64,000 nt of DNA, taken from sequence record PZ452591.1. The stretch is one strand, 5' to 3'. This DNA is from a phage. Positions 31,089-41,450 of this stretch are shown piece after piece; the first letter of the stretch is position 1, and each line of letters starts with the position of its first letter. The notes under the pieces are model-generated. The model ran no database searches, had not been told where the DNA came from, and saw nothing but the letters and a program-made list of their open reading frames with translations. The position numbers were made by a program, and so were the translations under genes.

Positions 31089-31562
31089 TTATTTGAACGA
31101 TTTAACGTACTGAATAGAACCTTTACTATTCACGAAAGCGATTTTACCATTTTTATTATACATGGTAGCAGTACGCTGATAGCCATAAGTTTGCTTACCA
31201 GATTGATAACCAACTAATGCAAAATTATCTTCACCCATTTTATTCTGTTTAGCGCGAATGCGTTCATGACCATGTGCCATAAGAACCTTAGCATCACCAG
31301 TTGCAATGGATCGACGAGTTTTTTCATCTTCAACTGTATTAACAAAGTCGTCAAATGAATCAAATTTAGCATGAGATTTATTATACAGTTTTCCATCTAC
31401 TGCATAATTATATCCTTGTACATCCATCTCAACTTCTGTACCATCATCTAATACAGCAGTAATTTTCTGTCCTTTTTTAAATTTCAAAAGATCAGTAAAA
31501 GATTCAGCAATAATTTGAGAATTAATAGCTGCCTCAGTAATAAATTCTTGATATGTTTTCAT
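31089..31562 (-). CDS. internal protein with capsid-targeting sequence (IPII locus)
   Basis: N-terminus MKTYQEFITEA equals the T4 internal-protein CTS. Confidence 0.6.
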   Translation of the reverse strand: MKTYQEFITEAAINSQIIAESFTDLLKFKKGQKITAVLDDGTEVEMDVQGYNYAVDGKLYNKSHAKFDSFDDFVNTVEDEKTRRSIATGDAKVLMAHGHERIRAKQNKMGEDNFALVGYQSGKQTYGYQRTATMYNKNGKIAFVNSKGSIQYVKSFK

Positions 31563-31670
31563 GTATATCCTTTAAATGTAAATAGTTTTATTCTTTAAGT
31601 TTTGGACAATTCATGCGTGTGAATTGTCCGTTTCTATATTTACCCATTACCAGGTTCGAACTCGGCTTTA

Positions 31671-32252
31671 TTAAGAATTACCGCGGGCTGCATTAGCAAC
31701 GGCGTAAGCGTACTGAACATTAGCGTCTTTAAACGTACCTTTAGAGGTATCTATTTCTGCCTTAAAGCCGCCTTTAGTCATAACATCGGCAAATTCTTTA
31801 CGGAAAGCCATTGCATCAAGACCTTTCCATGATGATTTATGCTTGGCAAATTCAAGACCGGCAAAGTTAACAGCCTTAGCTAATTTATTATCAATAACCC
31901 ATTTACCTGCTTTGGGCACAAACACCGGACCTTTCTGTTTGGAGAACAGTTTTAAATTCCATCGGCGAAGGTCTGCATCGGCTTTAACAAATTCTGAGTC
32001 TAAATTACTAGCAACAACATCTTGAATATGGGCAAATTTAAGTCCATCAACTTCAATATTTAGATCGTTACGCCAGCGAAGTCCTTCCCATGCGAAGGCT
32101 TTAAAGTCGGAAGCCTTTGTAGCTAAGTACCGTTCAATAGGAGCTGTTTTAGGGTCAAAGCCGTTTCCCGATCGGTAGGTCCACTCATCTTTGTTAATGC
32201 CTTTGGCCTTTACTACAGAAGCTTCGGCAATAAATTCTTGATAGGTTTTCAT
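31671..32252 (-). CDS. ipIII: internal protein with capsid-targeting sequence (IPIII-like)
   Basis: N-terminus MKTYQEFIAEA CTS; 193 aa; position upstream of e as in T4. Confidence 0.6.
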   Translation of the reverse strand: MKTYQEFIAEASVVKAKGINKDEWTYRSGNGFDPKTAPIERYLATKASDFKAFAWEGLRWRNDLNIEVDGLKFAHIQDVVASNLDSEFVKADADLRRWNLKLFSKQKGPVFVPKAGKWVIDNKLAKAVNFAGLEFAKHKSSWKGLDAMAFRKEFADVMTKGGFKAEIDTSKGTFKDANVQYAYAVANAARGNS

Positions 32253-32340: not shown

Positions 32341-33309
<969 letters not shown>

Positions 33310-37005: not shown

Positions 37006-37082
<77 letters not shown>

Positions 37083-37085
37083 TAA

Positions 37086-37751
37086 TTAAAATTTCATTTT
37101 TCGACCTTTAAACCATCCTTCTGGAATTGGGTCAGTTTTCTTAATACGTTTAGAAACTTTTTCATCTAATGAATGAATCCACATCATACCAAATTGGGAA
37201 TTCTTTTCGCCCTGTTGGTGTTTATTTCTGGCGTGAGATTCTTTCATTTTATTAATAGTTTCAGGAGTATGATGCTTATTTAAAAATCTGCTATTATTTA
37301 AAAATTTTTCCCTGTATTCAGGAGTTGACCACAAGCGTTTAAATACATTTGAACCATGTTTACGATATTTTTCTTGAAGTAAAATATCATTTTTAAAACG
37401 TGACTTAAACGATTTAGCTCCTTTTAAACTAGCGTCTTTCTTCTGGTTTAGCATCCCAGGAATATTTATATGGTCCCATCCACCTTCACCTCCAAGTTTT
37501 AAATTATACACATCTGGTCTATTTAAAAACTCTTCTGTGACAATATTTTTCTCGGCTTCAAGCATAGATTCTTTATCATCAAAATACTCTAATATTTCTT
37601 TAGAAAAATTTTCTATACCATATTTATCTTGGGCTCTTTTTAATAATTTACCAGAACCCATATATCCATCATCTAAATTTTCGGTAGAATGCACACCAAT
37701 ATAAATTTTATTATTAATTTTATTTGTTATTTTATAAGTGTAATGGAACAT
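37086..37751 (-). CDS. segB: GIY-YIG homing endonuclease (SegB-like) within the tRNA cluster
   Basis: 221 aa; N-terminal YKITNKINNKIYIGVHS GIY-YIG motif; sits between tRNA-Ile and tRNA-Arg. Confidence 0.8.
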   Translation of the reverse strand: MFHYTYKITNKINNKIYIGVHSTENLDDGYMGSGKLLKRAQDKYGIENFSKEILEYFDDKESMLEAEKNIVTEEFLNRPDVYNLKLGGEGGWDHINIPGMLNQKKDASLKGAKSFKSRFKNDILLQEKYRKHGSNVFKRLWSTPEYREKFLNNSRFLNKHHTPETINKMKESHARNKHQQGEKNSQFGMMWIHSLDEKVSKRIKKTDPIPEGWFKGRKMKF

Positions 37752-37792
37752 AAATATCTCCTATTTCTAAGAGTATTTATGTTCCCAAAATA

Positions 37793-37864
37793 TGGCCCTG
37801 GGTGGAATTGAACCACCATCTGGCGATTATGAGTCGCTTGCTTGAACCTTCCAGCTACAGGGCC
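37793..37864 (-). tRNA. tRNA-Ile (anticodon CAU, lysidine-type), no encoded CCA
   Basis: acceptor GGCCCUG/CAGGGCC perfectly paired; anticodon loop ACUCAUAAU. Confidence 0.8.
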
Positions 37865-37865
37865 T

Positions 37866-37938
37866 TGGTGCTGATTGACGGAATCGAACCGCCGACGTCC
37901 TCATTACAAGTGAGGTGCTCTACCTACTGAGCTAAATC
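37866..37938 (-). tRNA. tRNA-Thr (anticodon UGU), CCA encoded
   Basis: acceptor GCUGAUU/AAUCAGC; anticodon loop CUUGUAA. Confidence 0.8.
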
Positions 37939-37940
37939 AG

Positions 37941-38033
37941 CAACGGAGGCGATAGGATTTGAACCTATGAGTCGCCGGAGCGACTGCCGGTTTTCAAGAC
38001 CGGTGCATTAAACCACTCTGCCACGCCTCCAGT
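37941..38033 (-). tRNA. tRNA-Ser (anticodon UGA), long variable arm
   Basis: acceptor GGAGGCG/CGCCUCC; anticodon loop CUUGAAA; class II extra arm. Confidence 0.8.
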
Positions 38034-38035
38034 CT

Positions 38036-38109
38036 CCGTGGCAGGATTTGAACCTACGACATTCTGCTCCCAAAGCAGACGCTCTACCAAACTGAGCTAC
38101 ACGGAGTAA
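38036..38109 (-). tRNA. tRNA-Pro (anticodon UGG)
   Basis: acceptor CUCCGUG/CACGGAG; anticodon loop UUUGGGA. Confidence 0.8.
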
Positions 38110-38116
38110 ATTAAAT

Positions 38117-38193
<77 letters not shown>

Positions 38194-38198
38194 TTTGG

Positions 38199-38282
38199 TG
38201 CGAGAAGTGGGACTCGAACCCACAAGGAAATCATTCCGCAGCATTTTAAGTGCTGTGCCTTTACCAATTTGACCATTCTCGC
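38199..38282 (-). tRNA. tRNA-Leu (anticodon UAA), CCA encoded, long variable arm
   Basis: acceptor GCGAGAA/UUCUCGC; anticodon loop CUUAAAA. Confidence 0.8.
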
Positions 38283-38283
38283 G

Positions 38284-38356
38284 CTGGGAATAAAGGACTC
38301 GAACCTTTGCATCCTGGAATCAAAATCCAGTGCCTTACCAACTTGGCTAATTCCCA
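38284..38356 (-). tRNA. tRNA-Gln (anticodon UUG)
   Basis: acceptor UGGGAAU/AUUCCCA; anticodon loop UUUUGAU. Confidence 0.8.
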
Positions 38357-39154: not shown

Positions 39155-39340
39155 TTATTCACCTTTAGAAATTTTATCCATAACAATAGCAATTAAACCA
39201 ATTAAAAATGCTACTACAAGTGAAAACACATTTTCTGCTGTAGTCAATAATCCACATATAAATCCAACAAACATTGAAAAACTAAAAGCGGAAGCAGAAA
39301 TTGCAATAGCAACATTTCGAATTAATTCACAACGTTTCAT
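39155..39340 (-). CDS. small membrane protein (2 TM)
   Basis: 61 aa; hydrophobic AIAISASAFSFSMFVGFICGLL and LVVAFLIGLIAIV. Confidence 0.45.
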   Translation of the reverse strand: MKRCELIRNVAIAISASAFSFSMFVGFICGLLTTAENVFSLVVAFLIGLIAIVMDKISKGE

Positions 39341-39357
39341 TTTATTCTCCTCAGTAG

Positions 39358-39398
39358 TAGATAGGGTAATAGTATCACTACCCTATCTAAAAGTAAAC
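39358..39398 (-). promoter_or_regulatory. early promoter with embedded stem-loop (promoter/stem-loop cassette)
   Basis: GTTTAC (39393-39398); -10 TGATACTAT inside perfect inverted repeat TAGATAGGGTA/TACCCTATCTA (39358-39389). Confidence 0.6.
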
Positions 39399-39644
39399 TT
39401 ATTTTTTACGAAAAATTGATTTATTTTCTGCTGCCCATTTTTCAATAACTGCAGCAGGACCAGTAACAACAATTTTATCACCGTAATCTTCTGCGGCGAG
39501 TTGACCGAAATTATCTAATGCATCACGAAGAACTCCATGAGGCATTTCACCCATTTTATCTTTCTTGCCAGTGTAAATAAACTCAACTTTTACATCAGCA
39601 GTTTCAGCAATAAATTCTTGGTAAGTTTTCATTTTGATTTCCAT
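39399..39644 (-). CDS. internal protein with capsid-targeting sequence (IPI locus); likely start MKTYQEF at 39630-39632
   Basis: MKTYQEFIAE CTS after a 4-codon track extension; small basic protein. Confidence 0.55.
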   Translation of the reverse strand: MEIKMKTYQEFIAETADVKVEFIYTGKKDKMGEMPHGVLRDALDNFGQLAAEDYGDKIVVTGPAAVIEKWAAENKSIFRKK

Positions 39645-39660
39645 TTGGTTTTGTTTTGAT

Positions 39661-39720
39661 AGGGTAATAGTATCACAACTAAAACCCTATGTAAACAACT
39701 TTGTGAAATTATTTTAAATC
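39661..39720 (-). promoter_or_regulatory. early promoter/stem-loop cassette plus 31-bp repeat copy A
   Basis: GTTTAC (39691-39696), -10 TGATACTAT in inverted repeat; 31 bp at 39690-39720 identical to 40021-40051. Confidence 0.6.
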
Positions 39721-39966
39721 TTCTAATCGTTTCTTCATCTTAGAACCATTTTTAGCAATTTCTCCTGCATCGGAGCATAATGCTAAAAGTGCTTTAACTT
39801 TAGTTTGGTCTCCTTTAAAAGATGAAGGATCGACCGCAGCAGCAAGTTCTTTAATACGAGAGAAAAGACGCTCAGCTTCAGCTAAAGCCATTCCAAGCTT
39901 TACTTCCATACCGTGGGAAGATTCAGTGATAGTAGTTTTTGTAGCAAACTCTTTGAAAGTTTTCAT
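39709..39966 (-). CDS. CTS-bearing small protein (candidate injected internal protein)
   Basis: 85 aa; N-terminus MKTFKEFATK resembles the internal-protein CTS; its last codons (DLK-stop) and 3' flank are identical to those of 57B. Confidence 0.5.
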   Translation of the reverse strand: MKTFKEFATKTTITESSHGMEVKLGMALAEAERLFSRIKELAAAVDPSSFKGDQTKVKALLALCSDAGEIAKNGSKMKKRLEDLK

Positions 39967-39988
39967 TTTTATTTTCCTAATTAATTTT

Positions 39989-40724
<736 letters not shown>

Positions 40725-40725
<1 letters not shown>

Positions 40726-41450
40726 TATAGTACCTTTAGTGTATTTTTAATTTTAGAAAAAAGTTCTTCAAGAGAACCATCGTTTGTAATTACTAAATCG
40801 CCATCACGAATTGGCAATCCAGCTTCTGTAATATGTGTATCATTGGATTTTTGACCAGGACGAACTACATGAATTACTGTAGCACCCATCGCCCTAGCCG
40901 CATCCATTTCATGATCTTGACGGGTATCAGGAACGATATAATAATCATAACCTGAGTTAAATTTATCAAGATAATCTAAAGCAAATAATTTTACCCAGTA
41001 CATGCGGTCGAAGTTATTAACAATCAAATCCGTACCTAGGGCTTGCATCAGACGACGGACTGACCATTGATCTTCAATATTATTTATAACGTCAGTAATT
41101 TTGTTAAATGCTACGAAATTAACTGATTCTTTTCCTTCGTCATCAAAAACAAACACACCTTTAATTGGGCTTTTACCATTAAGATAGCAAAATGCTTGTT
41201 CCATAATCGTGATTACTTCTAATTTAGTCAGATTTAAATTAGTCTCACGATCATAGTCAATTCCTTCAAACTCTTTACGAGTTAAGCAAGGATAGTCGGT
41301 GTTTGCTGCAAATACTCCCCATGCATAAGCCAATGCATCCTTAATAGGACCAGCAAGTTGGTATTTAACTGCAGAATAATTACTCATGATAAAATCAGCA
41401 GTAGTATCTTTTCCACTACGCTTTACACCGCTTAAAAAGATTAGTTTCAT
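40725..41450 (-). CDS. 1: deoxynucleoside monophosphate kinase gp1
   Basis: 241 aa from MKLIFLSGVKRSGKDTTADF (P-loop); track ORF has 13 extra N-terminal codons. Confidence 0.85.

Follow-up and report, generated by a model that had tools for sequence, protein, structure and literature searches.

Internal-protein genes ip5 and ip6 at the ipI locus of a Tequatrovirus: candidate injected anti-defence proteins, one of them genetically tied to McrBC

Two adjacent genes on the minus strand of sequence record PZ452591.1, a 64,000-nucleotide stretch of Tequatrovirus DNA (hereafter the window), are very probably ip5 and ip6 of the T-even internal-protein (Ip) set, carried at the ipI locus in the T6/Bas37 arrangement, each as a self-contained cassette. 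Published work on the identical gene of phage Bas37 supports a genetic requirement for ip6 against a type IV restriction system, McrBC, which is not the target of the T4 protein IPI. For Ip5 we propose tentatively, and with slightly less than even confidence, that it is an injected inhibitor of a defence for which no phage counter-measure is known, one that would be neither McrBC nor any of the eight active GmrSD variants screened. The present analysis established the identity of the genes, their leader and cleavage motifs, the anatomy of the cassettes and the selection acting on them, and the evidence on the function of ip6 comes from the literature. Neither gene is new: according to later papers that cite Repoila et al., the names Ip5 and Ip6 reportedly go back to 1994 (EMBO J 13:4181), and the link between Ip6 and McrBC was reported in 2025. 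The idea that such proteins are injected against host defences, with which a preliminary description of this DNA began, is likewise the standing view of the field, at least as Repoila 1994 is cited in Black's 2010 review and in Silas 2025. The two genes are placed as follows.

39709..39966, minus strand: ip5, 85 aa, N-terminus MKTFKEFATKTTITESSHG
39922-39966, minus strand: ip5 leader, codons 1-15, MKTFKEFATKTTITE, then SSHG
39399..39632, minus strand: ip6, 77 aa, with a 10-codon leader MKTYQEFIAE at 39603-39632

At least 39 deposited phage genomes, among them that of the BASEL phage Bas37, contain the 699-bp locus at 100% identity, and 159 cover more than 80% of it. The 85-aa protein is exactly the UniRef entry 'Ip5' (Q38630, Q38630_BPT6) of phage T6 and matches phrog_3499 'internal head protein' at 1e-49; the same name is used in T2, RB70 and RB32, where the annotation adds that it "replaces ipI". 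The 77-aa protein is annotated as ip6 or ipVI in fHoEco02, PST, GiZh and VR20, matches phrog_8111 at 1e-52 and is identical to the translation of bas37_0260 from Bas37 (phage KarlGJung, MZ501089), a genome in which bas37_0261 is Ip5. Protein, DNA, locus and neighbour are thus all the same in Bas37, and the ip6 of the window shows no sequence difference from bas37_0260. The HIDEN-SEQ preprint that characterized Bas37_0260 calls it a previously unknown inhibitor and does not use the name Ip6; on the basis of these matches, the cross-reference of Bas37_0260 with Ip6/IpVI, the second gene of the ipI locus of T6, is made here. In T6, the order 57B-ip5-ip6-trna.4 is that of the window and the DNA differs at few positions; the Ip5 proteins are 100% identical and the Ip6 proteins differ by one residue (V62I). 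The same locus contains ip5 and ip7 in T2, and ip5, ip9 and ip7 in RB32. The window is not T6 itself: the rest of it is a mosaic, ∼96% identical to several Tequatroviruses, and it carries, for example, a homologue of IPIII.

Both minus-strand open reading frames (ORFs) of the preliminary description exist, and the coordinates of one of them had to be corrected by 12 nt. The longer ip6 ORF (39399-39644, minus strand) encodes 81 aa, starts MEIKMKTYQEF and has the full translation MEIKMKTYQEFIAETADV. However, the MKTYQEFIAE leader begins at the second ATG, at 39632, and not at 39644. A GGA Shine-Dalgarno-like element lies 7-10 nt upstream of the ATG at 39632, whereas inspection of the sequence found no such element upstream of the ATG at 39644. 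Since, in addition, the 77-aa form is the one found in the divergent homologues and in most annotations, we placed ip6 at 39399-39632, and the upstream in-frame ATG, which would add MEIK (39633-39644), is probably not used. Public annotations of 81, 98 or 99 aa begin at the ATG at 39644 or further upstream, and one member of the 81-aa cluster, from a metagenome record, bears the name 'translation initiation factor IF-3', apparently by mistake.

As the preliminary description had noticed, both proteins carry the T4 capsid-targeting sequence (CTS). The pattern MK[TS][FY][KQ][ED]F has four matching ORFs when the window is translated in all six frames, and none in 200 shuffles; two of the four are ip5 and ip6, and the other two are the IPIII homologue and Ip4, at a second internal-protein locus 7 kb away. 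Alignment with the T4 proteins assigns the leaders to two types. That of Ip5 is of the IPI type (MKTFKEFATKTTITE followed by S, as compared with MKTFKEFTSTTTPVSTITE followed by A in IPI) and ends ITE15, with S as the next residue. That of Ip6, MKTYQEFIAE, is exactly the leader of IPII and IPIII, ends IAE10 and is followed by T, where IPII and IPIII have A. Both leaders thus close with the (I/L)-x-E motif of the prohead protease gp21, which is kept in homologues, and the predicted cleavage sites, after ITE15 in Ip5 and after IAE10 in Ip6, fall at the leader end. Two further internal (I/L)-x-E motifs of Ip5, LAE30 and IKE40, lie inside predicted helices. In a Gaprivervirus, phage DK-13, the leader of the Ip5 variant is five residues shorter (MKTYQTF-ITE, then SSHG), while the cleavage site and the body have hardly changed, so that the length of the leader seems to be free to vary if the I-T-E site is kept; a metagenome variant begins MQTYQTF.

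Beyond the leader, the proteins have little in common. In BLASTP comparisons of Ip5 with Ip6, and of each with T4 IPI, similarity ends within the leader and the mature bodies are unrelated, which bears out the description of the second protein as one with a divergent body; on body homology, neither belongs to the IPI* family. The predicted mature Ip5* has 70 aa, 7.5 kDa, an isoelectric point (pI) of 9.2 and a net charge of +3, whereas mature Ip6* would have 67 aa, 7.4 kDa and a pI of 6.5. Since the former is basic and the latter near-neutral, neither resembles an acidic DNA mimic. Sequence searches of the PDB with both mature bodies returned nothing significant, and Pfam has no family for Ip5 or Ip6. 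AlphaFold2 (AF2) predicts a helical hairpin for Ip5 (pLDDT 71) and, for Ip6, a ferredoxin-like beta-alpha-beta-beta-alpha-beta fold (pLDDT 79.5) that agrees with the BFVD model of VR7 Ip6 at a TM of 0.95. IPI* has been described as two beta-sheets flanked by helices (PMC3012670).

The repetition of leader and flanks, the very small size of the proteins and the lack of a Pfam family could also indicate that one or both ORFs are untranslated remnants, duplicated leader fragments joined to junk sequence; the preliminary description had named this possibility for the 85-aa ORF. Judged from substitution patterns, however, both are real genes with bodies under purifying selection. For Ip6 against its VR20 homologue (78% aa identity), dN/dS is 0.14. 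For Ip5 against DK-13, the proportion of nonsynonymous differences (pN) is 0.088 and that of synonymous differences (pS) is saturated at 0.80; against a paralogue in Kha5h, dN/dS is 0.32. The ratios are thus well below 1, and they remove the doubt over the 85-aa ORF. Moreover, the ORF is kept at full length in 495 phage records for Ip5 and in 231 for Ip6, the AF2 confidence and the match to the VR7 model are enough to indicate folded proteins, and the identical ip6 gene of Bas37 gives a knockout phenotype. There is therefore next to no chance that these are remnants; the conservation pattern and the published phenotype together refute it.

Evidence on the function of ip6 comes from Bas37. Disruption of bas37_0260 brought a marked loss of fitness on K-12 BW25113 and none on an mcrA/mcrBC/mrr deletion strain, and a clean knockout was specifically McrBC-sensitive, insertions being tolerated on hosts without McrBC (HIDEN-SEQ, bioRxiv 10.1101/2025.11.20.689424). 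T4 itself has neither ip5 nor ip6. The DNA of T2 and T6 keeps non-glucosylated 5-hydroxymethylcytosine (5hmC), a McrBC substrate, whereas that of T4 is fully glucosylated (PMC13160076), and Bas37 encodes a beta-alpha glucosyltransferase of the T2/T6 type (bioRxiv 10.1101/2025.11.20.689424). Non-glucosylated 5hmC is thus a plausible rationale for the action of Ip6 against McrBC. The T-even internal proteins are regarded as diverse injected defence inhibitors that have only the CTS in common (PMC3012670; PMC9391042), the ipI product of T4 being an established packaged and injected inhibitor (PMC3012670). Of the GmrSD type IV enzymes, a different one is blocked by each of Ip1, Ip2 and Ip3, without cross-protection (Silas et al. 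2025, PMC12373910). The preliminary expectation that the second CTS protein would inhibit a defence other than that countered by IPI therefore holds for Ip6 as far as the McrBC-sensitive knockout of the preprint goes; for Ip5, the published screen of ip4-10 gave no reproducible GmrSD inhibition.

In the mechanism that we propose, the leader would bring each precursor into the prohead scaffolding core, where gp21 would cleave after Glu15 in Ip5 and after Glu10 in Ip6. The mature proteins, of ∼7.5 kDa, would remain in the head and be ejected along with the DNA, so that they could act ahead of any phage gene expression. Their targets would be nucleases that attack modified (hmC or glucosyl-hmC) DNA. 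For Ip6, the target would be McrBC, for which the non-glucosylated hmC retained in T6-type DNA is a substrate; any direct binding of McrBC by Ip6 is inferred. For Ip5, the most likely target would be a further nuclease, either modification-dependent or of the first response, that K-12 lacks and that the tested GmrSD panels did not include; candidates are another modification-dependent nuclease or a glycosylase acting on hmC or glucosyl-hmC DNA.

The organization of the locus is that of exchangeable cassettes. On the minus strand, the gene order is gene 3, gene 1 (dNMP kinase), 57A, 57B, ip5, ip6, trna.4, trna.3, trna.2 and then the tRNA cluster with segB. This is the ipI slot, one of two Ip loci of the Tevenvirinae, in which T4 has a single ipI between 57B and trna.4. 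The elements concerned are listed below.

40040..40498, minus strand: 57B/Acb1, anti-CBASS phosphodiesterase (Pfam Acb1, E=2.7e-60), at the T4 57B position; conserved left flank
39975..40035, minus strand: regulatory element of cassette 1, PeSL type, preceding ip5, then AGGA and the ip5 ATG
39645..39705, minus strand: regulatory element of cassette 2, PeSL type, preceding ip6
39350..39400, minus strand: regulatory element of cassette 3, a copy of repeat D1, serving trna.4
39360..39676, minus strand: ip6 cassette unit of 298 bp, with perfect 19-nt direct repeats GTGATACTATTACCCTATC at 39658-39676 and 39360-39378
39155..39340, minus strand: trna.4, a predicted membrane protein of 61 aa; conserved right flank

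Because 57B/Acb1 is directly upstream of ip5, the locus would present three counter-defence genes in a row. In several deposited records 57B is labelled 'RNA ligase', including that of fPS-65, where the coding sequence is truncated to 174 nt.

An element of ∼70 nt, made up of an AT-rich stretch, an early promoter and a stem-loop enclosing the -10 box, is present in three copies, before ip5, ip6 and trna.4. In cassette 1, which is a copy of repeat family D1 (39985-40055), a promoter scan gave an early sigma-70 promoter from 40026 to 39998 (TTTACA, 17 nt, TACTAT, with TG); a 13-bp stem-loop (RNA fold -17.4 kcal/mol, z -3.6) holds the -10 of this promoter in its loop. Cassette 2 has the same boxes, spacing and TG from 39695 to 39667, within a stem-loop ATAGGGT...ACCCTAT (-18.1 kcal/mol, z -3.8), and its element is homologous to the T4 element upstream of trna.4. 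The promoter of cassette 3 is weaker (TTTACT, 17 nt, TACTAT) and lies in a 14-bp stem-loop (-18.5 kcal/mol, z -4.2). Two of the three promoters score 9/12 with the TG extension. On sequence, this architecture is that of the PeSL elements (Arbiol et al. 2010, PMC2839356; Comeau et al. 2014, PMC4122927), which show the same succession of AT-rich stretch, sigma-70 promoter, stem-loop over the -10, Shine-Dalgarno (SD) sequence and ATG; as with those elements, the genes beside the copies are small and variable, and the ip6 unit lies between direct repeats. The stems are not of the GGGG/CCCC type; the promoter, terminator and mini-circle experiments on PeSLs concerned elements of RB49 and phi1 (PMC2839356; PMC4122927).

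Alignment with T4 locates the points of exchange. The two phages are 100% identical in the aligned flank, which starts at the end of 57B and takes in the promoter, the SD sequence and ip5/ipI up to codon 3; past codon 3, the leader is partly identical, the bodies are unrelated and homology returns at the next promoter element. Relative to T4, the ip6 unit is a single insertion, the spacing of the repeats being 298 nt. Such a pattern is what recombination between promoter/stem-loop elements would produce, and the annotation of Ip9 and Ip7 in RB32 as "flanked by 43 bp direct repeat" agrees with it. Ip5 therefore sits in the same slot as T4 IPI, the inhibitor of GmrSD-CT596, behind the same promoter, SD sequence and first codons; the two also share the leader type (MKTFKEF...ITE), a basic mature protein and a similar mature size (∼7.5-8 kDa).

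Several points weigh against the proposal that both proteins are injected inhibitors. The McrBC result is reported in a preprint and demonstrates a genetic requirement, not direct inhibition or proof that the injected form acts, and the same preprint does not mention Ip5 among the conditionally essential genes of Bas37 (bioRxiv 10.1101/2025.11.20.689424). When ten ip genes, including ip4-10, were assayed against five further active GmrSD variants, no reproducible inhibition was obtained (PMC12373910); we assumed from the shared nomenclature that the ip5 and ip6 of that study are the genes of the window. Moreover, T2 and T6, both carriers of Ip5, are restricted by GmrSD CT596, ECOR21 and ECOR17 (PMC12373910). 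Since T6 has Ip5 and Ip6, and T2 has Ip5 and Ip7, this suggests that neither Ip5 nor Ip6 blocks these three enzymes at native dose. Our literature search turned up neither virion proteomics nor N-terminal sequencing data on the two proteins, the fPS-65 paper being without virion proteomics, and both predicted folds are generic and give no mechanistic clue. Finally, a canonical late promoter (TATAAATA) is absent from both ip cassettes, and on their strand the nearest is found at 41081-41088, inside gene 1 and ∼1.1 kb upstream. T4 ipI likewise has no late promoter of its own, the nearest again lying in gene 1 ∼1.1 kb upstream, and because the layout is the same, whatever supplies IPI to T4 proheads should serve ip5 too. 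How enough Ip precursor is supplied at prohead assembly, past three stem-loops, is not obvious from the sequence.

The strong early sigma-70-type promoter directly before each gene, together with this lack of a late promoter, would also fit proteins made early in the infected cell, so that Ip6, and perhaps Ip5, would protect mainly from the cytoplasm, with a CTS that is incidental or secondary. Such a mode of action has a precedent: IPIII expressed in the host without its CTS rescues infection (PMC9391042), and its activity is therefore cytoplasmic and CTS-independent. However, McrBC would attack the entering DNA ahead of any transcription, which favours a pre-made inhibitor. Moreover, the CTS and the cleavage site are kept in homologues at 40-78% identity, and T4 ipI shares the regulatory region, yet a review describes its product as packaged and injected (PMC3012670). 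We consider mainly cytoplasmic protection unlikely.

The shared locus and leader, and the fact that Ip1, Ip2 and Ip3 all target enzymes of the very diverse GmrSD family, raise the further possibility that Ip5 and Ip6 are GmrSD inhibitors like IPI, as functional replacements directed at other variants. The negative assays and the restriction of T2 and T6 described above make this very doubtful, and for Ip6 it is already disfavoured, its target by genetics being McrBC rather than the GmrSD of IPI. Ip6 has the exact leader of T4 Ip2 and Ip3, the inhibitors of GmrSD-ECOR21 and GmrSD-ECOR17 (PMC12373910), and would follow the same scheme, in which each type IV enzyme is countered by its own small injected inhibitor. 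It differs from them in its unrelated body and its locus, Ip2 and Ip3 being encoded at the other Ip locus beside e, and in that their targets are of the GmrSD family and not McrBC.

For Ip5, a role outside defence must also be weighed. It could be a basic protein that associates with DNA and fills the prohead core or the packaged DNA, as a counter-ion or as an aid to packaging or ejection, and its variability would then reflect weak constraint and not an arms race. Mature Ip5 is indeed basic, as are IPI*, IPII* and IPIII*; the plain helical hairpin predicted as its fold has generic matches only, the GmrSD assays gave it no target, and the Bas37 transposon screens do not mention it. On the other hand, the body is under strong purifying selection (the pN of 0.088 against a saturated pS), and phages either have ip5 or have exchanged the entire cassette, at a hyperplastic locus next to Acb1. 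Furthermore, all Ips of known function are anti-restriction proteins, and T4 lives without Ip5, which is thus not needed for head assembly. A filler role is, in our judgement, somewhat unlikely, and we retain the tentative proposal that Ip5 is an injected inhibitor.

Outside T-even-like phages, Ip5 has next to no relatives. About 226 of the 495 records matching its body correspond to a paralogue with 54% identity, and ∼270 sequenced Tequatroviruses carry Ip5 itself. In Kha5h (NC_054905), the one genome in which the location of the paralogue was checked, it is a protein of 93 aa with the leader MKTYSEFLSE and is encoded between e and denV, in the other Ip locus; Ip bodies evidently move between the two loci. 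Two Ip5 copies are apparently present in 13 records. An exhaustive HMMER search with Ip5 of 1.84 billion representatives returned three clusters, all of CTS-bearing phage proteins, and no bacterial relatives that could hint at a function; the distant relatives, at 40% identity, still have the CTS.

The second internal-protein locus of the window lies downstream of the e lysozyme gene (32341-32835):

31089-32252, minus strand: second internal-protein locus
31671-32252, minus strand: IPIII homologue, 188/193 aa identical to T4 Ip3, the GmrSD-ECOR17 inhibitor
31089-31562, minus strand: IpIV/Ip4 (DUF7412), a CTS protein of 157 aa at the T4 ipII position

A further I-x-E site of Ip4 lies at residue 20. 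At 37006-38356, the minus strand has eight tRNA genes (Arg, Met, Thr, Ser, Pro, Gly, Leu, Gln) in a cluster, and an ORF for a segB-like homing endonuclease of the GIY-YIG family (221 aa, 37086-37751) lies between tRNA-Arg and tRNA-Met, at the position of segB in T4. The tRNA content is unlike that of T4 (Ile in T4, called Met/CAT here) and unlike that of fPS-65, which has 11 tRNAs.

McrBC has another T-even inhibitor, the T4 protein Arn (anti-restriction nuclease), which is expressed after infection and thought to be a DNA mimic. Arn is not known to have a CTS or to be packaged, and its gene lies elsewhere in the genome. Ip6*, with its near-neutral pI, is unlike an acidic DNA mimic such as Arn is thought to be.

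The internal proteins are the clearest case of phages that deliver pre-made anti-restriction proteins with their DNA. The locus described here displays the modular logic of this strategy, a constant promoter and leader combined with a swappable inhibitor body, beside Acb1, and leaves the general picture unchanged. That Bas37_0260 is the classical Ip6, present in T6, would explain the McrBC tolerance of T6-type phages, whose hmC DNA is partly non-glucosylated. Ip5, among the most widespread of the Ips and still an orphan, is a well-defined target for a screen.

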